Assembly: GCA_963779575.1 (NCBI GenBank)
Contig: CAVZYT010000005.1
Coordinates: 12,636-76,635 of the forward strand
Direction of reading: 5' to 3'
DNA length: 64,000 nt
Source of the DNA: an uncultured Chloroflexia bacterium
GTDB lineage: Bacteria > Chloroflexota > Limnocylindria > Limnocylindrales > CSP1-4
Shown: one piece after another, positions 9,816-51,568 of the stretch
Position numbering within the stretch: the first letter of the stretch is position 1
Layout: every line of letters starts with the position of its first letter
Notes under the pieces: model-generated
What the model saw: only the letters and a program-made list of their open reading frames with translations
What the model was told of the DNA's origin: nothing
Databases searched by the model: none
Program-made: the position numbers and the translations under genes

Positions 9816-9831
9816 TGGCGCGCCCGACAGG
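9816..9831. repeat. Exact copy of the tRNA-Arg(CCG) 3-prime 16-mer TGGCGCGCCCGACAGG (att-like; most distal copy)
   Basis: Identical to 51493-51508 (the complement of the tRNA 3-prime end). Followed by tgtaggacgcgcg, which resembles the arm seen at 39107 and 42277. Confidence 0.7.
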
Positions 9832-9895
9832 TGTAGGACGCGCGCTGAACGCGCTCTGCGTGTTCAGCGGCATCGCGGATTAGCAGGACGCCGCC

Positions 9896-9994
9896 CGCCG
9901 CCCTGCGACGCCTGCAGGACGATCGCGACGAGGGCGAGCCCGAACGCGACCAGTCCGAAGAGGGGCCACAGGGTCGCCCTCGCGTGGGTCGCCA
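9896..9994. repeat. 99-bp direct repeat, copy 1. A fragment copy of the 5-prime coding part of the membrane-protein gene at 16037-16738
   Basis: Aligned by eye to 16603-16701: a 70-bp identical run, then 2 mismatches, then an identical tail. Confidence 0.85.
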
Positions 9995-10111
9995 GAACGT
10001 GCTCGTCTCAGGATGCCGGGCACAGCCCAGGGGCGTGCAATACACATGATGTCTGATGTATGCTGAATCTGCTGGGCATCGCTGTGTGGAGGAACCCACG
10101 TACCTCGGCCG

Positions 10112-10141
10112 CTCCTATCGGTGAGGCGTCACCGATAGGAG
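10112..10141. promoter_or_regulatory. Perfect 13-bp inverted repeat CTCCTATCGGTGA-ggcg-TCACCGATAGGAG upstream of the ABC substrate-binding gene
   Basis: Read directly from the sequence. It lies 70 nt upstream of the 10213 start in a relatively AT-rich leader. It could be an operator or an RNA hairpin. Confidence 0.35.
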
Positions 10142-10212
10142 TCACTTCGAACTGTCGCCGCGAAGGCTGTGTCGTCAAACGAAGTCGAACCAAAGTGAAC
10201 AGGAGCAACGAG

Positions 10213-11679
10213 ATGTCTTTGCATCAACGAAGTGCGCCCCGCAGGTTGATGGGAGTGTCCGCAGCCGCAGTCTGCATCGCACTTGTCATAGCGGGCTGCT
10301 CGAACAATGCGGCCACCAGCAATCCAACTGGAACCGCTGCTGCCTCTGGAGCGTCCACCAGCGGTCCGGCTAAATCCGCCGGCTCTTCGACTGAATCCGC
10401 CGGCGCATCGACTGGCGGCACGTACGGCTTCCCCACCGTTGCGCAGGACCCAACCTCCAAGATCACCGTCTGGGTCGACGCCGACCGCTCGGCCATCGCC
10501 GAGGCCTTCGAGAAGGACCACCCCGAGTGCCCGCTCAGCATCGAGACGTACGACGCCAGCAAAGGGGGTAGCGACACGTTCCACACGAAGGTCTCGCTGC
10601 TCGACCAGGCCGGCTCGGGCTGGCCCGACGTTGCGTGGTCGGGACAGGTGAACGACGCCAGCTGGGCGGCCCACGAGCAGAACGGCGTTCAGGCCTTTGC
10701 CGCGCCGCTCGACCAGGGCGTCGTTCCCCAGAGTTGGCTCGACGGCTACACGCCGGGCGCGCTCGACCCTGTCACGGTCGACGGCCATGTCTACGGCGCC
10801 CGCGACAACCTGGCGCCCGTGGTGCTCTGGTACAACAAGACCCTGTTCGACAAGTTCGGGTACACCGTCCCGACCACATGGGAGGAATACCAGGCCCTCG
10901 GCGACAAGGTGGCGGCTGAGCACCCCGGCTACATCCTCGGCTCGATCGGCGATCCCTTCACCGCCGTGCTGACCGACATGTGGGCCGCCCAGGCGCCGAT
11001 CTACACGGTCGACGGCACCACCTTCACCACCGACTTCTCGGACAACCACACGACCCGCATGATCGCCCTGCTGGACCACATGTTCGCGAACAAGACCCTG
11101 ACGATCGATGGACTGTTCACCCCCGAATGGGTCAAGAACTGGAAGGACAAGGTCCTGGCGATCCCTGGCCCAACGTGGTTCGCGGGAGGCATCATCCAGA
11201 ACAAGGACAACCTCGCCGGTCAGCCAGGCGAGTGGGGTGCCGGCCACGCCCTCCACTGGGCTGGCGAGCCAATCGGCACCGGCAACGTGGGTGGCGGCTT
11301 CTGGTACGGGTCGAGCCACTCGGCAAACCTCGCATGCGTGGGTACCTACCTGCAGTACGTGACGAGCGGACCCCAGTCGGTCAAGCTCATCACCGGCCTC
11401 CCTGCCTACGCCTCGACCGCAAGTGCGTGGTTGGACGCGCAGACCAGTAGTGGCTTCTGGGCCAACTCGGACACGTTCAAGGACGTCGTCAATGAGGCAG
11501 CCAACAACATCTGGAAGGGCTGGGGTGCCTCGCTCCCCTTCAGTTCCGAGCCTCCGTGGGCGGAGATCGTGAATCCGGCTCTTGCTTCCGGAAAGACCAT
11601 TGCCTCGCAGGTCAGCGCTTGGCAGCAGAGAATGGTGGACGACGCCCAGGTGAACGGCTTCACACCCGTGACCAAGTAG
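10213..11679 (+). CDS. ABC transporter substrate-binding lipoprotein (carbohydrate/sugar-acid type)
   Basis: The ATG at 10213 follows AGGAGC. Signal peptide with lipobox (VIAGCSNN) and a Ser/Thr/Ala linker, then a family-1 solute-binding fold. Two permease genes follow. Confidence 0.85.
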   Translation: MSLHQRSAPRRLMGVSAAAVCIALVIAGCSNNAATSNPTGTAAASGASTSGPAKSAGSSTESAGASTGGTYGFPTVAQDPTSKITVWVDADRSAIAEAFEKDHPECPLSIETYDASKGGSDTFHTKVSLLDQAGSGWPDVAWSGQVNDASWAAHEQNGVQAFAAPLDQGVVPQSWLDGYTPGALDPVTVDGHVYGARDNLAPVVLWYNKTLFDKFGYTVPTTWEEYQALGDKVAAEHPGYILGSIGDPFTAVLTDMWAAQAPIYTVDGTTFTTDFSDNHTTRMIALLDHMFANKTLTIDGLFTPEWVKNWKDKVLAIPGPTWFAGGIIQNKDNLAGQPGEWGAGHALHWAGEPIGTGNVGGGFWYGSSHSANLACVGTYLQYVTSGPQSVKLITGLPAYASTASAWLDAQTSSGFWANSDTFKDVVNEAANNIWKGWGASLPFSSEPPWAEIVNPALASGKTIASQVSAWQQRMVDDAQVNGFTPVTK

Positions 11680-11715
11680 GCGAAGGAACGCACCATTCCT
11701 CGTACTGACGCCATC

Positions 11716-12654
11716 GTGCCCACTGCCGCCCCCACAAAGGAGCGGCAGTGGGCCTCTTTGCGCCCCCGAAGGCGGCCGCGAACCGGAGCTAGCGCGCAGG
11801 CATTCGCCGCCTACGTGTTCTGCAGCGGCTACGTGCTGCTGCTACTGGTCTTCGGCGTTCTGCCCATGGTCTATGCCCTGTATCTCTCATTCACGAAGAG
11901 TGGGCAATTCGTCGGGCTCGACAACTACGTGAAGGCCGTCGGGGACTTCCGGTTCTTGCCGGCAGTGCAGCACGTCGCGGCCTACCTGGTGATCTGGGTC
12001 GTGACCTTGGCCGTGCTCGTCACCCTGCTGGCGCTCATCGTCCACGCCCTGCGCGTCAGGCGGCGGCTTTCCTCTACCGTGCTCTTCCTGTTCTTCATCC
12101 CCGGCGCATTCGCGGGTGCGGCCAGCGTCATGCTCTGGGTCTTCTTGCTCAATCCCTCGGTCAGCCCGGTGGCCTTCGTCCTGAAGTGGTTCGGGTACAC
12201 GAGCTTCGTTCAAGCCATCGACCTGAACAACCTGCCCCTGATCTTCACGGTCATTGCGTTCTGGACCGGCGCCGGTGCATGGATCGTCATCATGTACGCC
12301 GCGTTGAACAACATCTCCGACGAGATCATGGAGGCTGCCCGCTGTGACGGCGCCGGCGCCGTCAAGACCGCTTGGTACATCCAGCTCCCGCTGATTCGGA
12401 AGTGGATCGCGTACATGGTCGTCATCTCGGTCGCCGTCGGGACCCAGCTGTTCGCGGAACCAAAAATTCTCGCCCAGGCGAGCAGGGGCCAGATCCCGAA
12501 GCACTATTCCCTCAATGAACTCGCATACGTCACCGCCTTCGGCCCGCAAGCGGACTTCAACAGCTCTGCCGCGATCTCGATCCTGTTGCTCGTCGTGGCG
12601 GCGGGGCTTGCCGCGTTCTTCGTCTTCCGAGGAGGACTCTTTGACCGCGACTAG
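11716..12654 (+). CDS. Carbohydrate ABC transporter permease (MalF/UgpA-like)
   Basis: Six-TM permease with an EAA-type loop (..EAARCDGAGAVKTAWYIQLPLI..). Confidence 0.85.
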   Translation: MPTAAPTKERQWASLRPRRRPRTGASAQAFAAYVFCSGYVLLLLVFGVLPMVYALYLSFTKSGQFVGLDNYVKAVGDFRFLPAVQHVAAYLVIWVVTLAVLVTLLALIVHALRVRRRLSSTVLFLFFIPGAFAGAASVMLWVFLLNPSVSPVAFVLKWFGYTSFVQAIDLNNLPLIFTVIAFWTGAGAWIVIMYAALNNISDEIMEAARCDGAGAVKTAWYIQLPLIRKWIAYMVVISVAVGTQLFAEPKILAQASRGQIPKHYSLNELAYVTAFGPQADFNSSAAISILLLVVAAGLAAFFVFRGGLFDRD

Positions 12655-13558
12655 AACACCGGTCGTGCGGTCTGACTTCGCGCCGGGCCGCTGGCTCGGT
12701 CGCGTGACAGCTTTCCTGATCGCCGGATTCTTCGCGGTGTTCTTCGTCCTTCCCCTGGTTTGGCTCCTGCTCGCGCCGACGAAGGACACCGGCCAACTCA
12801 ACGGCTTTCACGGCGAGGCTCCCCTGAGTTTCGGCTCCTTCGACCAACTCGTCGCAAACTGGAACGAGCTGGTCGGGTTCCAGGATGGCCGTATCTGGAC
12901 GTGGCTCGGGAATTCGGTGTTCTACGCCGGGGTCGCGTTGGTGCTCACGCTCCTCGTGTCAATTCCGGCCGGCTACGCGCTGGCGAAGACCAAGTTCAGG
13001 TTTCGCCGCGCGATCCTCATCTCGACCCTCATGGTGATGCTCATCCCGAACGCGGCGCTCGTGCTGCCGATCTTCCTTGAAGTCAGCGCCGTGCACCTCG
13101 TGGGGTCGCCGTTGGCGGTGATCCTGCCATTCGCGTTCTTCCCGTTCGGCGTCTATCTGGCGTATATCTACTTCGCCACCAGCGTTTCGCGCGAGCTTCT
13201 CGACGCCGCCCGCGTCGATGGCGCGGGCGAGTTCGCGGTCTTCCGGCGGATCGCGGTGCCGCTCGCGATGCCTGTCGTCGCGCTCGTGGGCTTCTTCAAC
13301 TTCGTCACCAACTGGAACAACTATTTCCTTCCCTTCGTGATGCTTCCCGGGTCGAAGACACAGCCCATTCAAGTGGGTCTGGTGGAATTGCTCGCGAACG
13401 TCCGGGAGTTAAATCCGACCACCGTCGCCTCCAACTCGATCCCGTTTCCACAGCTGGCGCTCGCGACGCTCATCTCTGTCGCACCGGTGCTGATCGTGTT
13501 CCTGTTCTCACAGCGATTCCTCGTGGCGGGCCTTACCGCAGGCGCGACCAAGGAGTAG
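12641..13558 (+). CDS. Carbohydrate ABC transporter permease (MalG/UgpE-like)
   Basis: I chose the TTG at 12641 after GGAGGA; it overlaps the upstream stop. EAA loop ..DAARVDGAGEFAVFRRIAVPLAMP.. Confidence 0.85.
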   Translation: MTATRTPVVRSDFAPGRWLGRVTAFLIAGFFAVFFVLPLVWLLLAPTKDTGQLNGFHGEAPLSFGSFDQLVANWNELVGFQDGRIWTWLGNSVFYAGVALVLTLLVSIPAGYALAKTKFRFRRAILISTLMVMLIPNAALVLPIFLEVSAVHLVGSPLAVILPFAFFPFGVYLAYIYFATSVSRELLDAARVDGAGEFAVFRRIAVPLAMPVVALVGFFNFVTNWNNYFLPFVMLPGSKTQPIQVGLVELLANVRELNPTTVASNSIPFPQLALATLISVAPVLIVFLFSQRFLVAGLTAGATKE

Positions 13559-13676
13559 GTCCGCCATCGTTGAGGACGCGAAGATCCGGCATTGCGTACC
13601 GCAGGTTCCGGACACCAGAGGCGAATGCCAGGCAAGGTTTCGACGCGGTGTGGCGACCTCGACGGAGACGTGTCAG

Positions 13677-14453
13677 TCAGGCGACGCCCGGCGCGCGCCT
13701 TCGGGTCCACGCCTTCGCGATGTGTTCTCGCATCGCAGTCGCGGCGCGGTCGCCGTCGCCCGCCGCAATCGCCTCGCATATGGCGCGGTGCTCCTCGAGC
13801 GACATCTGCGCTGCGTCGTCGGTGGTGATGCCCGTGAATCGACTGCTCTCGCGAGCGCGCTCGAACATGATGCGTGTGATGTTGGCGGCGAGCCGAATTC
13901 CCGATTGTTCCATGACAAGGTCGTGAAACGCGGCATCCGCGTCGTTGTACACAGAGATGTTGTCGATGTTTGCCGCGGCAAGGTCGAAAGCCTCACGCAA
14001 CGCAGCGGTGCGCTCTGGGTTCTGTCGAGCTGCCGCGGCGCGCGCCATGGTCGCCTCCAGGCTCCCACGGACCACCGCCAACTCATCGAGCACCTCCAGG
14101 GTCTCGTCGTGGTCGACGAGAGCCGAAAGAACATCAGGATCGAGCACGTTCCACCGACTCGACTGGTTCACGACCGTGCCTCGGCCCTGACTGACGGTCA
14201 CGAGGCCCTTTTCTTCGACTCGCTTCACGGACTCGCGAATCACCGTCCGACTCACGGCAAACTGCTTGCTCAGGGTGCCCTCTGGGGGGAGGATGTCGCC
14301 GGGAGCCACCGCGCCGGTGACGATCGCTTTCACCAAGTCCCTCACCACGGCGACGCCGAGGTTGGCCGCACGCACCCGGACGACGGTGTCGCCGAAGATG
14401 GTCTGCCGCTGTGAAGCGGCCGCGCTTTCCGGATCCGCGTCGTTCTGCGCCAT
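13677..14453 (-). CDS. GntR family (FadR-subfamily) transcriptional regulator
   Basis: N-terminal wHTH (..LPPEGTLSKQFAVSRTVIRESVKRVEEKGLVTVSQGRGTVV) plus an all-helical FCD-type C-domain. Confidence 0.85.
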   Translation of the reverse strand: MAQNDADPESAAASQRQTIFGDTVVRVRAANLGVAVVRDLVKAIVTGAVAPGDILPPEGTLSKQFAVSRTVIRESVKRVEEKGLVTVSQGRGTVVNQSSRWNVLDPDVLSALVDHDETLEVLDELAVVRGSLEATMARAAAARQNPERTAALREAFDLAAANIDNISVYNDADAAFHDLVMEQSGIRLAANITRIMFERARESSRFTGITTDDAAQMSLEEHRAICEAIAAGDGDRAATAMREHIAKAWTRRRAPGVA

Positions 14454-14544
14454 GCCCTCATCCTACTGTCGGGGATCTACGTGTCTCGGCGACGCAACGG
14501 CGAACTGATCGGGAGGCAGGGCTCGGTCGGTACGCACTCTCGCC

Positions 14545-14574
14545 AGTACTTGTATGATGTCGTATCAATAGTAC
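14545..14574. promoter_or_regulatory. AT-rich nested imperfect palindrome AGTACTTGTATGATGTCGTATCAATAGTAC between the GntR and dehydratase genes; candidate GntR/FadR operator
   Basis: Outer GTACT/AGTAC arms and inner TGAT/ATCA arms. TACTTGTAT resembles known GntR-type half-sites. The octamer ATGATGTC also occurs at 10046-10053 upstream of the ABC genes. Confidence 0.3.
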
Positions 14575-14665
14575 GCCAACTGAAGATGAGCCGCATGGCG
14601 AACGGTCCAGGTCGGCCGAGGGGTTCGGCACTGCGACACCTCGATCTCCGCACGAATGAGCAAGG

Positions 14666-15829
14666 GTGACGATGAAGATCACAGGCTATCGCACGCTGCA
14701 GACGATCCATGACTGGGGTCGTCCTGTGGGCGACGTCAACGGGCACATCGCATCGGGTATCACCGAGGTGCCGGTCGTCATCGTGGACACGGATGAGGGC
14801 GTCAGCGGCGTCGGAACGGGCTCGCACCAAGACTTGGCGCAGATCTTCCCGGCGATCGAGGGCGAGGATCCCCGCGCGGTATCCGCGCTCTACGACCGCA
14901 TGCTCGCGCGCGTGTTCAAGGCGGGCCATGCTGGCGCGACATTCGGAGGCATCGGAACCTTCGACATGGCGCTTTGGGATATCAAGGCAAAACTTGCGGG
15001 CGAGCCGCTTTGGCGCCTGCTCGGGGGGCGCGATCGGTTTGTCTCCGGGTATGCGTCCGGGCTGGATATCGCGCTCGATGATGATGAACTCGCCCTCTTC
15101 TATTCCAAAATGGCGGGCCGTGGATTCACGAGCGGGAAGCTCAAGGGCGGCAGAAACGTCGCCAGCGACATTCGCCGGCTAGGCATCATTGGCGATGCGC
15201 TTCGAGTCAACATCCCGGAGCCGGGCCTCATGCTCGACGCGAATGAGTCCTGGAATCTCAAGCAGGCCGTCCGCTATGTGTCCCAGATCGAAGAGGTTCA
15301 CGACCTCGTCTGGATCGAGGAGCCCATCCGCCGCTGGGACGCAGAGGGTCATGCGAGGTTGAGCGCTTCAGTACGCGCTGCGGTGGCTACCGGAGAGAAC
15401 CTCACTGGCCTGGAACAATATCGACCGCATTTCAACGCGGGCGGCATAGACGTCGTTCAAGCTGCCGCAACCTGGGGTGTGACGCACTTTCTGCGCGTGT
15501 CTATCGCGGCACACAGCCGAGACCTGCCAGTTAGCCCGGTGGGCCTCACGGCGAACGCCGCGGTCGCTCACGCTGCCGCAGCAGTGCCAAATCACTTGTC
15601 CGCCGAGATTCAAGACGTCGGTTCGCCGTTCGGCGTTTCGATCGACCAGGAGTATGCCGACGGTGGGATCGTGCTCGGCGACCAGCCCGGGGTTGGGGTG
15701 TGCGTCGACGAAGCTCTCATCGCCACGCTCCAGCACGCCGAACCGGGGTGGCGAGCGGAGGCAGGCCCACATGTCAGGCCCGCCCGCGCGGGACTGCAGC
15801 TCTCGGGCGAACCAGAGTCGGCCGCTTAG
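14666..15829 (+). CDS. Enolase-superfamily enzyme (mandelate racemase/muconate lactonizing family; probable sugar-acid dehydratase)
   Basis: ..FDMALWDIKAKLAGEPLWRLLGG..MLDANESW..WIEEP..ATGENL.. are the conserved MR/MLE metal-ligand segments. The start could be GTG 14666 or ATG 14672. Confidence 0.85.
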   Translation: MTMKITGYRTLQTIHDWGRPVGDVNGHIASGITEVPVVIVDTDEGVSGVGTGSHQDLAQIFPAIEGEDPRAVSALYDRMLARVFKAGHAGATFGGIGTFDMALWDIKAKLAGEPLWRLLGGRDRFVSGYASGLDIALDDDELALFYSKMAGRGFTSGKLKGGRNVASDIRRLGIIGDALRVNIPEPGLMLDANESWNLKQAVRYVSQIEEVHDLVWIEEPIRRWDAEGHARLSASVRAAVATGENLTGLEQYRPHFNAGGIDVVQAAATWGVTHFLRVSIAAHSRDLPVSPVGLTANAAVAHAAAAVPNHLSAEIQDVGSPFGVSIDQEYADGGIVLGDQPGVGVCVDEALIATLQHAEPGWRAEAGPHVRPARAGLQLSGEPESAA

Positions 15830-16036
15830 CTGCGCCAGATCCGCGACCTTGCGCTGGAGCATGCCGCGCGGCGCACACTCGCCGCAGGCAACGCAGCGCC
15901 GGATGGACGTCCTCGCCGCCCACGTCGCCGATGGCGGATCTGTCCAGGCGCGGCCGAGCTATGGATCGGCCGGCCGGCGGCCGGGCCCGGGGCGCTCGTC
16001 GCTCGCCACGAGCCTGGTCGCCGGGCGGTCGCCGGT

Positions 16037-16738
16037 TCAACTCTCGCGTAGCGCAGAAGGTCGCCGTTGGACCACCGCCGCCTGCGCAGCTGCCCACAAC
16101 AGCACCAGGAGGGTCGGCAGCGAGGCCAAAGGCGACTGCGGGATCGCGACTGCCAACAGCGCGAGGACCCCGATGGCCGCTGCGGTCCACCCGCTCCAGC
16201 GGGGAAGGCCGCCGCCCTTGAGAATCAGGGCTGAAGTGGCCAGCATCGCGACGCCGAGAACGGCCCAGCTGGCGATGTAGAGAGCGACATGAACGTCGAC
16301 GACCGCCACCAGCGCCGAGATATCCGCGGTCGAGCCAGCACGGAAGCGGGCCAGACCGCCGATCACGAACCCCGCGAGCGTCAGGGCGACAAACGTCATC
16401 GCGAACGCTGACGCCGTCGAGCGGACCGAGGACAGCCGGTCGTGCTCACCCGCGGGAAGCGCCTGAACGAGCGAGACGAGGAATACGCCGAGGCTCAACA
16501 GGGCGAGAACCTGGAGGTAGGCCCCAGCCCAGACCGAGAAGGTGGGCGCCACCGTGTACGCGGCGACGATCTCAGCCTGCGATGCGCCCGGATTGACTCC
16601 GCCGCCGCCCTGCGACGCCTGCAGGACGATCGCGACGAGGGCGAGCCCGAACGCGACCAGTCCGAAGAGGGGCGACAGGTTCGCCCTCGCGTGGGTCGCC
16701 ACTGGACCCGTTGATCGAATTGCCTGCGTGGTCTCCAT
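16037..16738 (-). CDS. Multi-pass membrane protein, family not recognised
   Basis: 233 aa with about 6 hydrophobic helices. GAAGGAG precedes the ATG. Its codons ~13-45 are the source of the 99-bp repeat. Confidence 0.65.
   Translation of the reverse strand: METTQAIRSTGPVATHARANLSPLFGLVAFGLALVAIVLQASQGGGGVNPGASQAEIVAAYTVAPTFSVWAGAYLQVLALLSLGVFLVSLVQALPAGEHDRLSSVRSTASAFAMTFVALTLAGFVIGGLARFRAGSTADISALVAVVDVHVALYIASWAVLGVAMLATSALILKGGGLPRWSGWTAAAIGVLALLAVAIPQSPLASLPTLLVLLWAAAQAAVVQRRPSALRES
16603..16701. repeat. 99-bp direct repeat, copy 2 (within the intact membrane-protein gene)
   Basis: See 9896-9994. Confidence 0.85.
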
Positions 16739-16903
16739 CGCCAGTCTCCTTCTTTCGATGCCAAAGTCGGCAGCCGGAACGTACCGTCCGTCCGAACTCC
16801 GACGGTAGTGGGAGCTGTCATCGGTTCTGGATGACGAGTGAGAGTGGCAACGGCATGACAGATCCCACTAGGCGGCTCCCGGGGGTCGTCCTATGGTTCG
16901 CCC

Positions 16904-17996
16904 ATGTCCCGCGGATGGCGCGTCGTAGGCAAGGCCCTCCTGGCGAGCTCGTCGCTCGTCCTGATTCAGGCCTGGCTCGACGTCCAGCAGCACCCGGACG
17001 TCGCAAGCGGCACAAGCACGCAGGTCCTGCTCCTCCTGGTGGCGATGGCCTGTGTCTGGTCGACCTACTGGCTCGTGACTGCTGGGCAAGCCTCCGTGGC
17101 GTTGTCCATCGCTGCCGTCGGGTTGCTGGCCGCGCTGGCGAGCGCGACGCTGCTCCTCCTTCCGGCGCGGTACTTCGGCCTGCTGATCTTCGCGTCCGTT
17201 CTCGCCGGCGGGGCGTTGCCCAAGCGGTTGGCGGTCCGTGCCGTCGCCGCCCTCATCGTGCTCGCCGTTGGCCTCGACCTGGCGCGATCGCTCGGACCCG
17301 CGAGCATTTCGCGTCGACGCCCTCGAAGTCGGCGTGACGGGCGCGGGTGCCGTGGCGGTCGCGTTTCTTCTGGCCTCCTACGGCGAGCTCCGTGATGCTC
17401 GTGACCAGGTCGCACGGCTCGCTGTCGCCGAGGAGCGCAATCGCCTCGCCCGCGACCTCCACGACGACCTTGGTCAGCGTCTGTCGCTCATCATCCTCAA
17501 GAGCGAGTTGGTCCGGCTCGATCTGCCCGACGGCACCCCGGAGCGGCTTCGCGCGAATGCCGACGACCTCGTGACCGAGGCAAGGGCCGCGCTCGACGGG
17601 CTGCGGACGGTCGTCATGGGTTTCCATCGCCCAAGCATCGAGACGGAACTCGCCTCTGCCGCGTCGATCCTCGACAGCGCCGGAATCGCGTTCGAGTGCC
17701 AGAACTCGCTCGGGCCCGTGCCGGCGCCGGCGGCCGACGTCCTGGCCTGGGGCATCCGCGAGGGAACGACGAATGTCGTCCGCCACAGCAGAGCGGCGCG
17801 CTGCTCGATTCGCCTGCGACGCATCGGCGGGCACGCGGAGCTGGAGGTCAGTGACGACGGCATCGGCGTCCAGACCCTCTCGCGGGGAAACGGCCTCTTC
17901 GGGATCGAGGAGCGCGCCACGAAGGTCGGCGGAAGCGTGTCGGCGACCGGAACTGACTCCGGCTTCACGCTGCGCCTGACGGTGCCGATCCAGTGA
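16904..17996 (+). pseudogene. Sensor histidine kinase (DesK/NarX-like, HisKA_3 type) with one frameshift near 17300
   Basis: The TM-rich N-terminal ORF (16904..) and the kinase core ORF (..ERNRLARDLHDDLGQRLS...GIREGTTNVVRHS..DDGIG..GNGLFGIEERA) are in different frames. Length is not a multiple of 3. Confidence 0.75.
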
Positions 17997-18604: not shown

Positions 18605-18670
18605 GCCCTTCCCAGGGGCCGTGAGGTATGGGCCGCGGCGCGGCGGAGTGGAGTCAAGACCCACCGGGCG

Positions 18671-20376: not shown

Positions 20377-20402
20377 ATCGGGTGACGTCGAGCAGGGGTG
20401 TC

Positions 20403-35530: not shown

Positions 35531-35542
35531 AAGAATTGTTCG

Positions 35543-39322: not shown

Positions 39323-39341
39323 GATCGAGTACGCCTGCCTC

Positions 39342-42358: not shown

Positions 42359-42603
42359 GAGACCGCCGCCTTCGGGGCGAACTCCCGCAGCACGCGACAC
42401 AGCGCCAGCTAGACGTCCTAGCGGCCTACGTTGAATCCGGGGGATCGGTATCGAGGGCCGCTGCTCGCGCGGGCGTCCGACCGAGCACCGCGAAACGCCA
42501 CCTCGCCGATCTGCGTGCCCGGACCGGGTTGACGACCGAGCAGCTGATCTACGTCGGTCGCGCTGAGGGCTGGCTGGTGGTCGACGCACGTGAACCTGGG
42601 TGA
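42355..42603 (+). CDS. Small helix-turn-helix protein (LuxR/sigma-region-4-like)
   Basis: The GTG at 42355 overlaps the recombinase-remnant stop (GTGA). ..TQRQLDVLAAYVESGGSVSRAAARAGVRPSTAKRHLADLRARTGLT.. An alternative GTG lies at 42328. Confidence 0.6.
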   Translation: MRDRRLRGELPQHATQRQLDVLAAYVESGGSVSRAAARAGVRPSTAKRHLADLRARTGLTTEQLIYVGRAEGWLVVDAREPG

Positions 42604-43969: not shown

Positions 43970-44388
43970 GCCAGAGCCTCCGACAACCCTTCAGCAGGCT
44001 CCGACGTCCCGACGGACGCTCCGGGCGCGCCATCGGGTCCGGCCACCAGGAAGGCGACCATCGCGAAGAAGCCGAAGTTGAAGATCCCCAACAGGAGCAG
44101 GACCGCGAACCACGTCTTGCTCTGGAGCTGCCAGGTGTTCAGCAGGGCTCCGATCCACGCGATGAGGCCTGCGATCAGGCCGCCAGCGATCGCGATGCCG
44201 CCGACGATCCCCAGGGGAAGCATCGCCCACGCGAGCGGGCTGCCCTTGAGGCCGACGATGTCGGGGCCGTTCATGACGAATGCGCCGTTCGCGTTTGCGA
44301 TCGCCACGGCCACGATGGCCAGGATGGCGCCTGCGATGACGGCGAGCCCGCCGCCGATGAAGAGCCTGGTGACAGTTGCTTTGGACAT
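43966..44388 (-). CDS. Small membrane protein (about 4 TM)
   Basis: I chose the start MSKATVTRLFIGGGLAVIAG after AGGAGA. Hydrophobic segments are the only support. Confidence 0.55.
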   Translation of the reverse strand: MSKATVTRLFIGGGLAVIAGAILAIVAVAIANANGAFVMNGPDIVGLKGSPLAWAMLPLGIVGGIAIAGGLIAGLIAWIGALLNTWQLQSKTWFAVLLLLGIFNFGFFAMVAFLVAGPDGAPGASVGTSEPAEGLSEALA

Positions 44389-44477
44389 TGGATGTCTCCT
44401 TTCGAGGTTGACGAAGGACCTTGGTGGTCGGTCCCGGCGATATGGCCGGCGGTTGCGCGAAGCGCCCGTGTCGTTGA

Positions 44478-45251
44478 TCAGCTGGTCGCCGCGAGGGCGT
44501 CGGCGGCACGAACCGGTGCGACGGCATCTGCCAGATGGCGCTCCGAAGACCGGAACCCCTTGGCGATCAGCCAGACGCCGAAGGTGACTTCGAAGAGTCC
44601 ACCGGGGATCGACAGCAGCAGCGAGACATGGATCCCGAAGATCTCGGCGATCGCGCCCGTGAGGAGGACCGCGTAGCCCACGACGCCCCACAGCGCGAGC
44701 GTCCGAGGGACCAATCGTGTTCGGAACACGAACCAGGTCATGAACAGGGCCCCGAATGCCAAGGTTCCCTCGCCAAGCTGGTAGGCCAGCGTATTGGCCT
44801 GCATCAGGAGCGATCCGAGCCCAGTGGCCCCGCTGTCGGCGGCGCCGGTGACGAATTCGCTCAGCGGCACGAGCATCAGTAGGAACAGCACCCCGAGGTC
44901 CAGGAGGACGACCTGGGCGGTGATCGCGGCGAGGTAGACGAGCCCGCTGCGCTTGCCCCGGCGCTCAGCGATCGGGAAGAACAGCACGCCCTTCCCGATG
45001 TCGGTGGCGGTGTTGAGGAGCATGAGGAAGGCGCCGACCAGCAACGTGGTCGAGTGCGCGGAAAGTGTGGCCATGAAGTCAGGCGCGGTCGTGACGGAAC
45101 TCACCAGGCCGAAGCCGATTCCGTAGACCACGAACCCGGCGATGAAGAGCGCCCCGAAGATCCTCGAAAAGCGCTTACCGGGCCCCTGCGGGTCCTCGAT
45201 GGACTGGTTGGTCGAGCCGGCTGAGTCGCGGCCCTGAACGGTGGACGTCAT
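44478..45251 (-). CDS. Multi-pass membrane protein (possibly DUF4386-like)
   Basis: I chose the start MTSTVQGRD after AAGGAGA. About 6 hydrophobic segments. Confidence 0.6.
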   Translation of the reverse strand: MTSTVQGRDSAGSTNQSIEDPQGPGKRFSRIFGALFIAGFVVYGIGFGLVSSVTTAPDFMATLSAHSTTLLVGAFLMLLNTATDIGKGVLFFPIAERRGKRSGLVYLAAITAQVVLLDLGVLFLLMLVPLSEFVTGAADSGATGLGSLLMQANTLAYQLGEGTLAFGALFMTWFVFRTRLVPRTLALWGVVGYAVLLTGAIAEIFGIHVSLLLSIPGGLFEVTFGVWLIAKGFRSSERHLADAVAPVRAADALAATS

Positions 45252-45333
45252 GTCATCTCCTTGGTCGTTGTTGGGTGTGTGGTTCGGGCCTCCCGGCCGC
45301 GTTGGTTGGATGGCGCGTGGGCGTCCGCCGGCA

Positions 45334-46304
45334 TCACACGGTGATCGCGACCTTCCCCTGCGCATGGCCGGTGCCAACGTGGTCGATCGCCTGCGCTGCG
45401 CTGCTCAAGGGATAGGTCCGATCCAGGACGGGCGTGACCTTGCCAGCCTCGATCAGCTCCTTGAGGGCGACGAGGTCGTCGTGGTTCGTGGAGACGAGGA
45501 AGTTCGCGGCTCTCTGCGTGCCCGATCGGAACATGAGCTTTGCCCGGATGAGCCGGCCCGCGCTCGAGAACCATCGGTTGCCGAAGTTCCCGCCGTTCGG
45601 GATGAGCACGCCCGTGGCGGTCAGCGCGCGTCGGAGGCGGGAGAGCGAGTGGTTCGAGACGTTGTCGAGGATGAGGTCGTAGCGCTTCCCGCTCGCCGTG
45701 AAGTCCTCCTTGGTGTAGTCGATCACGTGGTCGGCCCCGACCGCGCGGACGAGCTCGAGGTTCCGCGTGCTCGCGACCGCCGGTGACCTCGGCGCCGAGC
45801 GCCTTGGCGATCTGGATCGGCGAATGTGCCGATGCCGCCTGACGCCCCGTTGATCAGGACCGTCTGTCCGGCACGGACCTTGCCGTGGTCGCGGATGGCC
45901 TGGAGGGCGACGAGGCCCGCCATCGGAACGGTGGCGGCCTGCTCGAAGGTCAGGTTGGCTGGCTTCAGGGCCAGCTCGTCCTCGGACGCGGCGGCGTACT
46001 CGGCGTAGGAGCCGTGCGACACGCCGAACACCTCGTCGCCGGGCTTGAAGCGCGTCACGTCCTGCCGACCGCAGCGACGTCCCCGGCGACATCCGTCCCG
46101 CGGACGGCGATCTTGGGCCTGCGCAGCCCGTGCACGGGGCGCGCGATGTACGGCAGCCCGCTCATCACCGCCCAGTCGGCCGAGGTTGACGCCGGCCGCG
46201 CGGACGCGGACGAGCACCTCGTTGTCCCCGATCACTGGCTTCTCGATCTCCCGGGCGTCGAGGACCTCGGCCGAGCCGTAGGTGTCCTGAACGATCGCCT
46301 GCAT
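45334..46304 (-). pseudogene. Zinc-type alcohol dehydrogenase / quinone oxidoreductase (MDR family) with about 4 frameshifts
   Basis: Pieces read MQAIVQDTYGSAEVLDAREIEKPVIGDNEVLVRVRAAGVN | DWAVMSGLPYIARPVHGLRRPKIAVRGTDVAGDVAAVG | QDVTRFKPGDEVFG...LINGASGGIGTFA | QIAKALGAEVTG | ASTRNLELVRAVGADHVIDY...GHAQGKVAITV. Frame switches lie near 46180, 46065, 45822 and 45785. Confidence 0.75.
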
Positions 46305-46369
46305 GGAACGCTCCTCTGTGTCGACTCGGTCTTCTCTGAGTCCTCTCCTGGCGTTATGTCGGATCGGCT

Positions 46370-46573
46370 CGAACGGGGATCGGACGATAGGCAGATCACC
46401 TCGTGGCCTCGCAACGCTTCGAGAAAGGGCTGGAAGCTGCCGCAGACAAGGCAGTGGATGGTGTGATCGTCGACCTCGACCTCCGAGACTCCGGACGCCC
46501 GCTCGATCTGGCGGGTCGGAGGGGTATCGACGAAGGTGACCTCGACTCGCCATGTGGCTCGGTTGTTGAACAT
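46370..46573 (-). pseudogene. Possible fragment of an ABC-transporter ATPase C-terminal domain
   Basis: ..WRVEVTFVDTPPTRQIERASGVSEVEVDDHTIHCLVCGSFQPFLEALRGHEVICLSS resembles the C-terminal regulatory domain of DrrA-type ATPases. No Walker motifs are present. Confidence 0.3.
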
Positions 46574-46673
46574 GCGAGGAGGATGGGATCGGGCGACGGG
46601 TCGTCCACGTCGACCGGATTGCGTATCCGATGCGTAGTCCCGGTCGAGACGCGCGGTGCTACCGTGCGGCGCG

Positions 46674-49023
46674 ATGGCCCGACCGAGACGTCGCCTAGGC
46701 AACCTGCCCGCGGAGACGACCAGCTTCGTGGGCCGCCGCCGGGAGCTGGCTGAGCTTCGCAGTGCGCTCGCCAGGGCCCGCCTCGTCAGCCTCGTCGGCC
46801 CGGGCGGCGTGGGCAAGACGCGCCTGGCTCTTCGAGCGGCGACGGACCTCGGACGTGGCTTCGCGGACGGAGCCTGGTGGGTCGACCTCGCCGAGGTCCG
46901 CGATGCGGCGCTCGTGTCGGGTGCAGCGGTCGCAGCGCTGGACCTGCGGGACCAGGCCGCGGCCGAGCCGTTGCAGATCCTGTCGTCCTACCTGCGGGAC
47001 CGCGAGGCTGCTGCTCGTCTTCGACAACTGCGAGCACGTGCTCGACGCGTCTGCTGCCCTGGTGGCGGACATCCTCCGTGCCGCACCCAACGTCCGCGTG
47101 ATCGCGACGAGCCGCGAGCCCCTGCAGGTCCCGGGCGAGCACGTCGTCCCGGTGCCGCCGCTGGAGCTTCCGGCCGGAGGGAGACGAGCAGCCGATCTCC
47201 CGGCTGCTCCAGAACGAGGCCGTCATGTTGTTCACGGAGCGAGCGGCGGCCGCATCAGGGTCGTTCGATCTGAGCGCGTCGAATCGATCGGCCGTCGTCG
47301 GCCTGTGCCGGCGACTCGATGGCCTGCCGCTCGCGATCGAGCTTGCCGCCGTCAGGACGCGCGTGCTCACCGTCGAGCAGATCCTCGATCGACTGACGGA
47401 CCGGTTCGCGCTCCTGACCGGAGGAGGCCGCGCGGCACTGCCTCGGCAGCAGACGCTGAGGATGACCATCGACTGGAGCCACGACCTGTTGACGGCCGCG
47501 GAGCAGAGGCTCCTGCGCCGCCTGTGCGTGTTCGCCGGCCGGTTCACCGTCGATGACGTCGAGTCGGTCTTCGCGATCGACCAGGAATCCGGCGCCCAGG
47601 CGCTGGACCTGCTGGCCGCGCTGGTCGACAAGTCGCTGGTCACGAGGGAGGACGCGTTCGGCGTCGCCTGCTATCGCCTGCACGAGACGATGCGCGAGTA
47701 CGCCAGCCTCAAGCTGCGAGAGGCGGGCGAGGTCGGAGCGGCTCGACGACGTGCTACGTCGAGTACTACCGGACGCAGTCCCGCGATCTGCGGGAGGCGC
47801 TGCTTCGCGATCATCCGGCTCGGTCCTCCGGTCTGGCGCCCCAGGGCCCAACCGGACGCTCCGAATGGCTCCAGTGGGTCGACCTCGAGATCGACAACAT
47901 CCGATCGGCACTCCAGAAGTGCCTGGCTGCTTCGGACTGGCGGCGTGGTCTGGAGCTCGCCACGTCCGTCGGCTACTTCTGGGTCACGCGCGGGACCACG
48001 GAGAGCATCCGCTGGTTCGATGACCTGCTCGCGGCGGCTGAGGGATCCGCAGACGTTCCGCCGCGGGCGTACTACTTCCGGGGATGGATGAGCATCCTGA
48101 AGGGCGACCCCGAGGCGGCCGGGCCCTGGCTTGCTCGGGCGATCGCCGCAGCCCGCGTCGCGGTACAGCTCCCGCAGCTGTCCGAATCGCTGTCCCTCGC
48201 CTCGACCGCGGAGGACATGGCAGGAGATCGCACAGCCGCCCGACGACTCCTCGACGAAGCCGAGACCATCACGCCGCGGCGTCGACCACTACCCCGCGAC
48301 GATGGCGTTGATCCAGGCACGGCCATCCATGCGCTGTTCGAGGGAGACCTCGCCGCCGCGGAGGCCGCGTCCTCTGAGGGCGCTCGACTGAGCCGCGAGG
48401 TCGGCGACCTGTACTACCTCGAACGGATGCTCATGAACCTCGGCCTCGTCGCGCTGGCGGCCGGGGATCTGCCCGGGTCGAAGGCGCGGTTCATCGAGGG
48501 GCTGCGGATCGCGAAGCAGACCGACAACCGGCTCGGACAGTCCTCCTTCCTGCGTCGATTGGGCGGGCAGGCGGCGAGTTCCGGCCAGGCGCGCCTGGCG
48601 GCGCGGTTGCTCGGGGCAGCGGATGCCCTCGGTGCGGCTGCCGGCGCCAGCACGACCGGTCCCATCGAGCCGGAGCTGGCGCGGGCGACGGAAGCGGCGA
48701 CAGCGGCGATGGGCGCGGCGAGGTTCGAGGCCGAGTACGCCGCGGGCACACGGTTGAATCGCGAGGCAGCGCTGCGACTTGCGCTCGGCGAACCGGACGA
48801 GCTCGATGTCGACGCCGATCACCAGGTCGACACCGGACCACTTTCGAAGCGAGAGGTGGAGGTGGCGAGACTGATCGGCGAGGGTCTCGGCAACAGGGAG
48901 ATCGCGGCGCGCCTGTTCATCTCGGAACGGACGGTCACGACCCACGTCGGCAACATCCTGAACAAGCTCGGGTTCGATTCGCGCGTCCAGGTCGCGAGCT
49001 GGATCGCGACGTCTGATCCGTAG
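46674..49023 (+). pseudogene. Large ATP-binding LuxR-family (LAL/AfsR-like NB-ARC plus TPR plus HTH) regulator with at least 5 frameshifts
   Basis: Walker A ([13 protein letters not shown]), [22 protein letters not shown]-like repeats and a terminal LuxR HTH (..LSKREVEVARLIGEGLGNREIAARLFISERTVTTHVGNILNKLG) are in order. Frame changes lie near 47008, 47175, 47737, 47751 and probably 48273/48322. Confidence 0.75.
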
Positions 49024-49032
49024 CGCGTGCCC

Positions 49033-50007
49033 TTAGACCTGTGAGCCCTGTCCGCCCGCCCCGTCCCACTCGCTGACTTCGGCCACCAAGGGCACGAGTA
49101 CGCGATCTGGCTCGTCCTCGATCGCCGCTGGCGCCGACGACGGGACCGATTGCGCGCTGAACGCACCCACCCAGACACCAACCAAGACGAACGCTCCACC
49201 GAGCACGAATGTGAGCCGGATCGGCTCGCCCAGGATGACCGCGGCCAGCGCGACACCCGCCAGTGGCTTGAAGAGATCCGTGTAGGAGTAGCCCGACGCC
49301 GTCCAGCGTCCGATGATGAAGATGGCGAGCGGAAACAGCAGCACGGTCCCGAACACGACCAGAAACACCAAGGCCGCCCACGTCTGCGGCTGGCTCGGGA
49401 GGACCCAGGGCTCTCCCGCGAAGACCGAGAGCGCGACCAGGATCGGCAGGGCGACGGCGCCCCCCACCGCGTTCGCCGAGATTGGGTGGCCCGGTGGCAG
49501 ACGTTTGATCACAACGGCGGTGACCGCGCTGAAGAACATCGCTCCACCCAGCGCCAGCAGGGCGGGCACCGGGACCGCGGCACCAAGCTGGTCACTCACG
49601 ACGACGACCATTCCTGCGGCGGCGACCAGGGCCCCCGCCACGCCCCGGAATGTGAACCGCTCGAGGCCGATCACTGCGGCCACGGCGAGGGTCACCAGTG
49701 GCGTCACCGCGAATACGATCGCGCCCATCGACGCCGACGAGCCGCTCACGCCCACGTAGAGCAACGCGGTCGACGCGACGAAGGTGAGACTGAACAGCAG
49801 GGCGCCCACGAGGTTCGCTCGGCGCGGGAACGGGATGTGCAGCGCGAGAGCCAAGGCGGTGAAGATGGTCACTGCCAGCGCGTAGCGCAGGGTGGCGGCC
49901 CAGAACGGTGGCAACTCGAAGCTGCCCAGGCGGATTGCGACCGAGACGGCCCCGGCGATCAGGACGAAGCCGAAGAATGCCGCCAGTGTGACGCGGTCTG
50001 GACGCAT
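49033..50007 (-). CDS. EamA/DMT-family transporter
   Basis: 10-TM layout with two EamA-like halves. Confidence 0.8.
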   Translation of the reverse strand: MRPDRVTLAAFFGFVLIAGAVSVAIRLGSFELPPFWAATLRYALAVTIFTALALALHIPFPRRANLVGALLFSLTFVASTALLYVGVSGSSASMGAIVFAVTPLVTLAVAAVIGLERFTFRGVAGALVAAAGMVVVVSDQLGAAVPVPALLALGGAMFFSAVTAVVIKRLPPGHPISANAVGGAVALPILVALSVFAGEPWVLPSQPQTWAALVFLVVFGTVLLFPLAIFIIGRWTASGYSYTDLFKPLAGVALAAVILGEPIRLTFVLGGAFVLVGVWVGAFSAQSVPSSAPAAIEDEPDRVLVPLVAEVSEWDGAGGQGSQV

Positions 50008-50213
50008 GCGACGAGGCTAATGCCATGCGTCAACGTTCGTCACCATTAGTCGCCGACGCTGGCTCCCGAGGCGTAGCACCCGAGGCGGATAGACCCGGCC
50101 GCTTGCGCCAACCACGCTCATGGCGATGTCGACGGGCGTGCACTCCAGCGTCACCAGCGTCAGAGACGGCACGACAACGGCTGCCGCTCTGACGGAAAGC
50201 GTCGGCCGGTCGC

Positions 50214-51557
50214 GTGATCCGGACCTGCGACAACGGGCACCCGCCCGCCCGCGTCCCGTCCGGGATGCGGTGCGCAGCGTGCGAGCGCAGGCGCCCCAGT
50301 CGGCAGGCGCGCGGGTACGACGCGGCCCACGAGCGGGCGCGAGCAACGCTCGCGGCCCTGCTGCCCGCGCCCTGCGCGTGCGGGTGCGGCGCGGTGCTGG
50401 ACGCGGGATCCGACTGGGTGGCGGCACACCTGGTGGACGGCGACCCCTCCGCCGGCTGGGCGGCCATGTGCCGCTCGGGCAACGAACGCATGAAGCGCAG
50501 GGGGTGGGGTAGCACCTCGGATGGCGTGGCACCCGGGAGTACCCGTGACCCGGGAGGGCATGCCGGGCTCGGCTTTCGACGAATGCCCGCGCCGCCACAC
50601 ACGCTCGAGATCGACCCCGATCGTATGCCCATCGCCGTCGGCCTGTTCGAGCGGTACGCACTCGGCAACGTGAGCGCGACGGGGCTCGAGGCGGAAACCG
50701 GCCTAGCTGCGACCCGGATCCGGATGATCCTCATGAACCCGCTCTACAACGGCTGGATCCGCCGACACCGTGGGCCGCGCGAGACTCGCCGGCCAGCGCC
50801 CTGGCGCTTTGACCCACCGGTCTCGGACGACCTCTGGGCGCGGGTCGAGGACGTGCGGCGAGCGAGAACACAGGGTGGGGGACCGCGCCACCGCGGTCGC
50901 CTCGACATGCTTGCGGGGCTCCTGGAGTGCACCTGCGGGAGGCGGATTCGATCAGACGGTCGGATGGGGAACTCGGAGCGGGTCGCCAAGCTGCACACCG
51001 ACCCATGTGCCGGCTGGGGCTCGAAAGCCCGGATTGCCGCGACCACCTGGGAGGTACCCATCCTCGCCCAGCTAGGGTCGCTCCGTGTCGACCACGCCAT
51101 GCGCGCTCAGATCACCGCGGTGCTCTCTGCCGGTGATCGTCCATTGACCATGGATCGTGCCCGCCTCGAACGCCAGATGCGCGAGCTTGCATTGGAGCAT
51201 GCCGCGGCACGGCTCGACGACGCGGAGTACCTCGCGCGGATGGCACGCCTCCGCGGAGACCTGGAGATCGTGGGGGTGCAGCCGGCCCGGGACCTGCCGG
51301 CGCGTCGCGCGACTGAGTGGCTCGACGCCCTCGCCGAAACCTGGCAGCAGACGGAACAAGTAGAGGAGAAATCCGACGTGATCCACGCGATATACGAACG
51401 GATGGTCATCGAAGGGCCGCGCTTCGTCGGCCTGCGCCTCACACCGGCGGCGTATCGGCACGGAATGGCGCTCGCGCTGCCAGAGGCTGTTATGGCGCGC
51501 CCGACAGGATTCGAACCTGCGACCTTCGGCTCCGGAGGCCGACGCTCTATCCACTGA
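50214..51557 (+). CDS. Recombinase-type protein: an HNH-like zinc-finger N-terminus fused to serine-integrase DNA-binding domains (recombinase domain, zinc ribbon, coiled coil). No resolvase catalytic domain recognised
   Basis: ..LEIDPDRMPIAVGLFERYALG..IRMILMNPLYNGWIRR.. (recombinase domain). ..MLAGLLECTCGRRIRSDG.. (zinc ribbon). A long helical region follows. The N-terminal ~100 aa read C..C..RGYDAAHERAR..PCACGCG..AAHL..CRSGN, which is HNH-like. The last 17 codons read through the att core into the tRNA gene. Confidence 0.7.
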   Translation: MIRTCDNGHPPARVPSGMRCAACERRRPSRQARGYDAAHERARATLAALLPAPCACGCGAVLDAGSDWVAAHLVDGDPSAGWAAMCRSGNERMKRRGWGSTSDGVAPGSTRDPGGHAGLGFRRMPAPPHTLEIDPDRMPIAVGLFERYALGNVSATGLEAETGLAATRIRMILMNPLYNGWIRRHRGPRETRRPAPWRFDPPVSDDLWARVEDVRRARTQGGGPRHRGRLDMLAGLLECTCGRRIRSDGRMGNSERVAKLHTDPCAGWGSKARIAATTWEVPILAQLGSLRVDHAMRAQITAVLSAGDRPLTMDRARLERQMRELALEHAAARLDDAEYLARMARLRGDLEIVGVQPARDLPARRATEWLDALAETWQQTEQVEEKSDVIHAIYERMVIEGPRFVGLRLTPAAYRHGMALALPEAVMARPTGFEPATFGSGGRRSIH

Positions 51558-51568
51558 GCTACAGGCGC
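51493..51568 (-). tRNA. tRNA-Arg, anticodon CCG, CCA encoded
   Basis: Folded by hand: acceptor GCGCCTG/CGGGCGC, D arm GCTC-AGTGGATA-GAGC, anticodon arm TCGGC-CTCCGGA-GCCGA, variable loop AGGTC, T arm GCAGG-TTCGAAT-CCTGT, discriminator G, then CCA. 76 nt. Confidence 0.9.

Follow-up and report, generated by a model that had tools for sequence, protein, structure and literature searches.

The ssrA islands of Dehalococcoides, which are associated with the serine integrase DsiB, lie in tandem downstream of the transfer-messenger RNA (tmRNA) gene and are bounded by direct repeats of about 20 bp of its 3′ end (McMurdie et al., 2011; PMC3146451). Insertion occurs near the T-loop, the integration module is missing from many of the islands, and the DsiB ends were reported to be divergent and probably non-functional (PMC3146451). 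Integration by serine recombinases into the 3′ ends of tRNA genes is called 'rare' in the passages of a survey that deal with it, the examples being the Mycobacterium AICEs (integrative elements of actinomycetes that are also conjugative) at tRNA-Leu and phage phiRSM1 at tRNA-Ser (Ghinet et al., 2011; PMC3218068). Here, we analyse a 64,000-nt stretch of contig CAVZYT010000005.1 from an uncultured Chloroflexia bacterium; this whole stretch is termed the window, and all coordinates are window positions. The segment from 9.8 to 51.5 kb is very probably an array of integrative-element remnants that each inserted into one and the same tRNA-Arg(CCG) gene, at its 3′ end, through site-specific recombination by a large serine recombinase (LSR). 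At least four remnants are present, and their number is probably six or seven.

Likened by description, the ssrA islands appear to be the closest system on record. Both are found in Chloroflexota as tandem islands beside one tRNA- or tmRNA-type gene, with repeats of its 3′ end and an LSR integrase, and in both the LSR gene overlaps the attachment (att) repeat at its 3′ end and continues into either the target gene or the following island. Nevertheless, there are several differences. The target here is tRNA-Arg(CCG) and not tmRNA, and the repeat is 16 nt long. The Dsi module comprises six genes, whereas in the relatives examined no DsiA-like small serine recombinase, RecF, ParB or Mom module lies beside the LSR gene; its neighbours in related loci L003, L010–L012 and L002 are primase-helicase genes, helix-turn-helix (HTH) genes and small open reading frames (ORFs), with no adjacent second resolvase. 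Unlike in DsiB, the element-side tail of the LSR is conserved at the protein level and is translationally coupled to an HTH gene. The Mycobacterium AICEs and phiRSM1 belong to other phyla, use other tRNAs and have conjugative or filamentous-phage backbones, and the parts of the survey devoted to them do not describe an attP (element attachment site) inside the integrase gene (PMC3218068).

With the integrases of PhiC31, Bxb1, A118/LI and TP901-1 the LSR shares an N-terminal resolvase domain, the predicted fold and an imperfect att dyad around a central dinucleotide. Those integrases mostly use protein-coding targets, and their attP lies outside the integrase ORF and has 2–12 bp in common with attB. 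In the present system, unlike in these, the LSR ORF contains an entire half-site that matches the tRNA end without a difference, and the Pfam Recombinase and zinc-ribbon models miss the family. In mycobacteriophages BPs, Brujita and Charlie, reportedly described by Broussard and co-workers in 2013, attP is said to lie inside the repressor gene and a tyrosine integrase to act on it, so that integration alters the repressor C-terminus. The resemblance is that attP within a coding sequence would tie a protein C-terminus to the integration state; the difference is that the split gene here is the serine integrase itself. We regard attP inside the LSR gene as an uncommon variant of an already known island-building route.

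The array is marked by a 16-mer, TGGCGCGCCCGACAGG, that occurs exactly at 9816, 35543, 39091, 42261 and 51493, each time on the + strand. The original prediction, made from the letters of this DNA, had reported these five same-orientation copies and their match to nt 61–76 of the tRNA including the CCA, and exact matching, ARAGORN and Rfam all agree with it. The copies, referred to as cores, are as follows.

9816–9831, + strand: core copy 1, exact 16-mer; the distal-most recognisable junction, attL-type (unrelated flank, core, arm).
35543–35558, + strand: core copy 2, exact 16-mer; 13 nt past the stop of a TetR gene.
39091–39106, + strand: core copy 3, exact 16-mer; an internal junction.
42261–42276, + strand: core copy 4, exact 16-mer; an internal junction, attP-like.
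51493–51568, − strand: tRNA-Arg(CCG) (ARAGORN, Rfam); its 3′-terminal 16 nt (51493–51508) are core copy 5, attR.

The tRNA was called by ARAGORN, and Rfam concurs with a score of 72 bits. As the complement of nt 61–76, the 16-mer spans the 3′ strands of the T stem and the acceptor stem, the discriminator base and the encoded CCA. Dinucleotide-preserving shuffles gave an average of 0.31 matches with at most two mismatches, and five were reached in none of 100 shuffles. No copy was found in the 22 kb of window flanks outside the array.

The recombinase family that adjoins the tRNA is an LSR family divergent from the Pfam models. The ORF at 50214–51557 (447 aa) matched no Pfam domain. When its C-terminal 307 residues were used as the query, 466 homologous proteins were retrieved; the best are 84–97% identical, about 500 aa long and equipped with the PF00239 resolvase catalytic domain (E 7e-12 in full-length homologues); they come from Chloroflexota or Ca. 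Limnocylindrales and are labelled at source 'DNA invertase Pin-like site-specific recombinase' or 'recombinase family protein'. In an alignment of 25 sequences the full-length homologues have an invariant R21-E22-S23 near the N-terminus. An AlphaFold2 model of LSR protein P0001, of moderate confidence (mean pLDDT 64), runs, in the order expected of an LSR, from a resolvase domain through a long helix, a helical domain and a beta-ribbon region to two long helices. Its top Foldseek matches are full-length serine integrase–att complexes (9y66, 9dxh and the PhiC31 structures 9tep/9rah; E 2e-10 to 5e-8), and 4kis was also matched; the alignments cover about 520–580 columns with low TM-scores of 0.2–0.3. 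The LSR assignment follows from PF00239 and the invariant R-E-S in the homologues together with these structural matches. Against phage and plasmid collections the family gave nothing above 25% identity, with similarity confined to the N-terminal half; the best plasmid matches were Staphylococcus 'recombinase family' genes at 25% identity.

Recombinase remnants were detected at the following positions, where HMM denotes a hidden Markov model and i-E its independent E-value.

50475–51492, + strand: truncated LSR gene, residues 139–480 of about 500, inside ORF 50214–51557; it has lost the catalytic domain and with it the Ser nucleophile.
42101–42260, + strand: diverged LSR C-terminal remnant of 52 codons; tblastn with P0001 residues 428–511, 54% identity, E 2e-22; HMM 70 bits.
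39075–39090, + strand: LSR gene end, the last five or so codons (...GAVM); 39075–39106 is 96.9% identical to 51477–51508; HMM positions 474–491.
15830–15874, + strand: possible LSR fragment, marginal (motif RQMRELALEHAA); blastn of 15833–15868 against 51171–51206, 88.9%, E 1e-5; HMM 3.7 bits, i-E 0.33.

The recombinase at 51493 had been taken as full length, which is incorrect. Only 50475–51512 matches the homologues (residues 139–486, 92% identity); the first 87 codons of the ORF are unrelated and Cys/His-rich, and the ORF runs 65 nt into the tRNA antisense. With residues 1–138 and the catalytic serine gone, the resident LSR gene is dead, and the 447-aa ORF is to be annotated as a dead fusion and not as an integrase. 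A recombinase end does precede the core at 42261, as had been noted, with 52 codons before the core in place of the 73 originally counted (84 residues overall, comprising these codons, the core and the tail), and the short trace seen before 39091 proved to be the LSR gene end listed above. The remnants left of the cores thus measure 348 aa at 51493, 52 codons at 42261 and about five codons at 39091, and tblastn and HMM searches found none left of 35543 or 9816; a six-frame HMM scan of the window found none beyond these and the marginal trace at 15830. The remnant at 42101–42276 is only 69% identical in nucleotides to the resident gene (51373–51508).

The sequence that follows a core, here called the arm, reads as the LSR's own C-terminal coding tail, and the attachment site as embedded in the 3′ end of the LSR gene. 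Among 120 homologue C-termini, 69 have the tRNA-antisense form found in the window, in which MARPTG is followed by FEPATFGSGGRRSIH, and about 26 have a conserved 26-residue tail (IPIEGRDEW) after MARPTG; the residues ARPTG are encoded by the tRNA-identical 16-mer. The arms at 39091 and 42261 encode the IPIEGRDEW-type tail in frame with the preceding LSR remnants, and the sequences at 9816 and 31464 encode a decayed tail (9815–9907 matches P0001 residues 480–511 by tblastn with 56% identity, E 0.017, and 9816–9844 is 96.6% identical to 42261–42289). The original prediction had recognized the arms at 39091 and 42261, 44/55 identical outside the core, and a recurrence without the core at 31464. 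Both were borne out by alignment (39091–39161 against 42261–42331, 84.5% over 71 nt; 31464–31519 against 39111–39166, 83.9%), but an arm of a second subtype at 35543 had been overlooked.

9832–9907, + strand: decayed arm, an orphan LSR tail; it agrees with the other arms over its first 13 nt and ends much like '...AARRPA' before a stop.
16595–16701, + strand: second copy of the tail end and the next 90 nt or so, duplicating 9887–9994 (96% over 108 nt); no core; possible degenerate junction.
31464–31538, + strand: arm without core, degenerate junction; 83.9% to 39111–39166; tblastn to tail residues 487–511.
35559–35636, + strand: arm of the second subtype, frameshifted; similar to the arm that follows the second of the L002 LSRs and to the P0095 tail (THxxFRLIPxDGxxxW).
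39107–39167, + strand: arm coding for a 20-residue tail; the stop codon and HTH gene are lost.
42277–42358, + strand: intact arm with the 26-residue tail; TGA at 42356–42358.
42355–42603, + strand: small HTH gene; 82 aa if started at the GTG that overlaps the tail stop, 91 aa if started at 42328; Pfam HTH_30 29.1 bits, HTH_1 28 bits.

The HTH gene is a conserved first gene at the left end of the elements, with homologues behind arms in L001, L002, L074, L087 and L089. In 20 of 24 arms the tail TGA is overlapped by the ATG or GTG (ATGA/GTGA) of the next ORF, usually that of a small HTH protein of 82–103 aa. Over 21 independent arms from the window and its relatives, the diversity of the IPIEGRDEW segment at codon positions 1, 2 and 3 is 0.04, 0.00 and 0.21. 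Single-base codon differences in the tail divide into 933 synonymous and 507 non-synonymous in the LSR frame, as against 371:1064 and 151:1292 in the other frames, these being pairwise and hence non-independent counts. In its pattern of substitution, the LSR tail is under protein-level purifying selection in the relatives. Such selection implies that elements regularly exist with the LSR and the tail joined, in the excised form or at an internal junction, because selection on the LSR protein cannot act on a tail orphaned at a left junction.

Two further observations concern these repeats. The four cores away from the tRNA (9816, 35543, 39091 and 42261) show no changes in 64 nt, while the adjoining arms are rearranged, frameshifted or truncated. 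ARAGORN also calls a tRNA-Ala(GGC) at 31485–31576, which we reject as a false positive (92 nt long, no Rfam support, overlapping the core-less arm); over-long calls of this kind are found in L033 and L038 as well.

The core and the arm together form a site with the geometry of a serine-recombinase target. In 38 unique core-plus-arm sites, the GG with which the 16-mer ends is the centre of an imperfect inverted repeat of about 12 bp, with the consensus TGGCGCGCCCGACA-GG-tGTtGGaCgCGCG and a complementarity of 0.74–0.97 at 8 of the 12 positions; the tRNA side has the same GG with 6 of 12 symmetric positions. The junction sequences demand a crossover that would fall inside the 16-mer. Since the block of identity stops at the terminal A of the tRNA on one side and at the centre of the dyad on the other, GG is the likely crossover dinucleotide, and the 14 nt to its left would be a half-site common to attP and attB that also rebuilds the tRNA. 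The 8-bp core–arm hairpin proposed in the original prediction does exist as an inverted repeat, with a stem of 11 bp at 39091 and weaker pairing at the remaining copies. Its reading as a single-strand fold was rejected (strong only at 39091, z −3.9, and weak elsewhere) in favour of the duplex dyad symmetry of attP around GG.

We examined 80 related loci from GTDB species genomes and 80 JGI metagenome contigs; in tblastx comparisons with the window a bit-score filter was applied because sum statistics on high-GC DNA inflate the results. The LSR family is associated with tRNA-Arg: the LSR 3′ end overlaps this tRNA on the opposite strand in about 58 of the 80 genome loci and in 49 of the 80 metagenome loci; 18 metagenome loci have the LSR with its tail form. 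Of the 80 genome loci, nearly all belong to metagenome-assembled genomes of uncultured Chloroflexota or Ca. Limnocylindrales. The overlapped tRNA is mostly CCG, with TCG in L046, L048 and L084 and TCT in L054 and L064. Sister LSRs (P0040–P0069 and P0060/P0072/P0076) end in other tRNA-antisense peptides, ARPEG-FEPPTI and ASPAG-FEPATFRLEGGCSVH; from these ends and the TCG and TCT overlaps it follows that the core-encoded residues co-vary with the target tRNA. Complete elements in the relatives have a core-plus-arm left boundary and an LSR–core–tRNA right boundary.

L101/L102, 3.27 kb: HTH gene, 158-aa membrane protein, small ORF and intact 500-aa LSR.
L106, 3.9 kb: complete element.
L087, 5.1 kb: complete element.
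L044, 8.7 kb: complete element.

Larger relatives carry primase-helicase modules (L002, L003, L010–L012) or phage terminase and portal genes (L009), and arrays with several cores were found in L001 (at least six arms in 21 kb), L002, L070, L071, L076 and L089. In 57 non-redundant loci, extra cores on the 3′ side of the tRNA number 11 direct and 1 inverted in 488 kb; the 476 kb on its 5′ side have no direct copy and 2 inverted ones.

Among the relatives, the 3.27-kb minimal element is 99.9% identical in the two metagenome contigs that hold it (L101 272–7440 and L102 6673–9938), and L101 has a second tRNA-Arg(CCG) 3.8 kb past the first. The IMG/VR 'viral' contig L013 contains, at 10001–20182, two inverted units of LSR, tail and ParB/methylase together with a host-type nucleotidyltransferase gene; we considered it as a free phage genome and rejected it as integrated DNA with a host-type gene.

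These findings suggest how the array was assembled. In the free element, attP would sit within the LSR gene, at the 3′ end. The left half-site of attP, exactly nt 63–76 of the tRNA, would encode '...MARPT' and be followed by the central GG, and its right half-site, the arm, would be an imperfect inverted repeat of the left one that continues the frame as a 26-residue tail, whose TGA overlaps the ATG or GTG of the small HTH gene in the attP region. Crossover at or near GG would put the arm, the HTH gene and the cargo beside the displaced tRNA end, leaving flank, core and arm at the left junction. At the other end, integration would fuse the LSR gene to the tRNA body, with the tRNA rebuilt from the element's 16 nt and the integrated LSR ending in the tRNA-antisense peptide. 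The rebuilt tRNA would be a target again, and later elements would insert between the older LSR and the tRNA and so make internal junctions of LSR end, core and arm. Deletions would then strip most of the element genes, and the array would now be immobile in cis, since its only sizeable LSR gene has no catalytic domain.

Element-side sequence stands to the right of every core copy except at the tRNA, where the tRNA body follows. The entries appear to have been independent and not the outcome of local duplication, because the 42101–42276 remnant is so diverged from the resident LSR and the arms are of two subtypes. The youngest insertion probably adjoins the tRNA, as the LSR remnants shorten monotonically outward and their lineages are mixed; the rebuilt tRNA junction keeps the tRNA-side half-site and is attB-like, and the distal junction is attP-like. 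Serial integration at one tRNA and a composite, decaying island, as originally proposed, fit both this anatomy and the related loci; the class of the enzyme and the meaning of the arm have had to be corrected.

Several results weigh against this assembly. An empty site, with the DNA left of 9816 abutting the tRNA as the original prediction had envisaged, was not found in the relatives of the flanks, L098 and L099. The comparison was anchored on the right flank (GH127); flank protein g10 was unsuitable, with four matches of which one was the window itself, and exact-sequence look-ups of flank proteins g10 and g53 gave no match, probably because of start-codon choice. The flanks of L099 are 86–90% identical to the window in nucleotides, and L099 joins window 1–3084 (SDR, PadR, PhaE, PhaC) to 52297 onward (LacI, GH127, sugar transporter) with isocitrate lyase and LysR only and no tRNA between them, 3.1–52.3 kb being absent. 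L098 shares the right flank and has a tRNA-Arg(CCG) that is 94% identical, with different neighbouring genes on the tRNA 3′ side, and neither an LSR nor a second core lies within 4.9 kb of the tRNA 3′ end. L098 and L099 therefore show that the island is strain-specific and the locus highly plastic; around the tRNA, these two loci and the window are all different from one another and point to no single ancestral state. All five cores are perfect in spite of their rearranged neighbourhoods, which simple neutral decay does not explain; resetting by recombination, an LSR still acting in trans and young age are possible reasons. The blocks were called elements from their junctions alone, and Pfam and PHROGs found no replication or phage genes in the window blocks, only genes of accessory type. 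No circular or free form was seen, with terminal overlap in none of the fully fetched contigs of the 80 metagenome loci. Finally, the C-terminal domains of the LSR match neither Pfam Recombinase (PF07508) nor zinc-ribbon (PF13408), and the pLDDT of the model is modest.

Three other explanations were weighed. The island might have been acquired once, already composite, or later elements might have entered at the distal core-plus-arm junction. An internal junction of LSR end, core and arm looks the same from either end, composite mobilisation (accretion) is known for the Dehalococcoides ssrA islands (PMC3146451), and L099 is without the whole region in one piece. Nevertheless, we consider this improbable: the LSR remnants shorten monotonically away from the tRNA, the true tRNA-side half-site is held by the tRNA-proximal junction while the distal one is element-side and attP-like, not attB-like, and the arms and LSR remnants are of different lineages. 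It is very improbable that the locus is a classical tyrosine-integrase tRNA island, AICE- or P4-like, with the serine recombinase as a mere passenger. The usual targets of tyrosine integrases are indeed tRNA 3′ ends, and a Xer-like PF00589 gene is present in some related elements (L003, L010–L012, L013), but no tyrosine recombinase was detectable in the window, the minimal 3.27-kb elements have an LSR and no tyrosine recombinase, in about 100 loci it is the LSR gene that adjoins the tRNA and has the repeat within it, and the dyad symmetry of the site around a dinucleotide is of the serine-recombinase style.

There is next to no probability that the 16-mer is a repeat of the repetitive extragenic palindromic or miniature inverted-repeat transposable element (REP/MITE) kind, scattered genome-wide and resembling the tRNA end by descent or chance. 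The core does contain the palindrome GGCGCGCC, and a few inverted or degenerate copies occur in relatives (on the − strand at L001 20420, L013 18661 and L070 9598). The five window copies are nevertheless all direct and on the 3′ side of the tRNA, with none in the flanks, the 57 related loci have their 11 direct extra copies on the island side against none on the opposite side, and the arms continue LSR genes in frame under protein-level constraint. As far as the window and the related loci reach, a dispersed repeat of this type is excluded, and dispersal over many loci unrelated to tRNA-Arg, which the original prediction had named as its refutation, was not seen there.

Serial entry by LSR at the tRNA raises a further and more doubtful possibility, that attP, by its place within the LSR gene, would serve as a switch tied to the integration state, in which the tail swap changes both the form of the LSR and its HTH coupling. 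In the free element the LSR would be made at full length, complete with the IPIEGRDEW tail, and its translation would be coupled to that of the HTH protein; integration would swap the tail for the tRNA-antisense peptide and uncouple the HTH gene. A state-dependent enzyme or partner could in this way set integration against excision without a classical recombination directionality factor, and at an internal array junction the older neighbour would regain its full-length form. An attP in the LSR ORF, a tRNA-identical half-site, a conserved alternative C-terminus and a coupled HTH gene together provide a testable model of such an enzyme. The LSR family is widespread in Ca. Limnocylindrales, an abundant uncultured soil and wetland lineage, tRNA genes are described as rare serine-integrase targets, and the LSR route appears to be a main path by which accessory genes build up beside tRNA-Arg(CCG) in this lineage. 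The compact integrase/att pair, with minimal elements of about 3.3 kb and a conserved tRNA-end attB, is also a candidate tool for genome engineering.

The cores delimit four blocks. The accessory-type cargo with fragments and pseudogenes that had been described between the cores was recovered as Pfam-annotated genes, among them the frameshifted zinc-dependent alcohol dehydrogenase (Zn-ADH) and LuxR-type regulator; ten unannotated island ORFs had no match in PHROGs. ECF denotes extracytoplasmic function.

42261–51493, 9.2 kb: SDR, DUF2938, DUF4386, frameshifted Zn-ADH, frameshifted large LuxR-type regulator, EamA.
39091–42261: M1 peptidase.
35543–39091: SnoaL-like, MBL-fold, AraC, PD40.
9816–35543, 25.7 kb: two-component, ECF-sigma and beta-propeller paralogues; LuxR, TetR, SnoaL; low-GC ABC-transporter/GntR/enolase segment.

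The 25.7-kb distal block holds the core-less arm (31464), the duplicated tail end (16595) and the marginal LSR trace (15830). Because L099 has none of the DNA at 3.1–52.3 kb, the foreign or variable stretch may reach further left than 9816. The part of this absent DNA at 3.1–9.8 kb encodes a Kelch protein, an ECF sigma factor, a truncated PfkB (6062–6493), an MBL-fold protein and two unknowns.

The 108-nt direct repeat at 9887–9994 and 16595–16701 (96–98% identical) begins within the final codons of the LSR tail; it may represent a further degenerate junction or have arisen by recombination. Its copies flank a 6.6-kb segment of lower GC content (0.63) that encodes the solute-binding protein and two permeases of ABC-transporter type, GntR and a member of the enolase superfamily. 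A minus-strand ORF (16037–16702) with a predicted N-terminal transmembrane segment has the second copy as its 5′ end. Two likely pseudogenes lie in the tRNA-proximal block: at 45334–46304 a Zn-dependent dehydrogenase is split into ADH_N and ADH_zinc_N ORFs, and at 46400–49023 a large LuxR-type (AAA/TPR/GerE) regulator is spread over at least three frames; a second copy of the regulator, N-terminally truncated, is found at 27937–29355. Three beta-propeller paralogues (DUF6923/PD40/NHL-like) occupy 20290–25790 and have a conserved 90-nt 3′ end at 20290, 23241 and 25701; a 1-kb tandem duplication relates 22292–23330 to 24730–25790 (76% identical). In the same distal block, two ECF sigma-factor paralogues (20503–21004 and 32865–33369) are inverted relative to each other, 12 kb apart and 68% identical in nucleotides, and similar ECF-sigma/propeller pairs lie beside the tRNA-Arg of L098.

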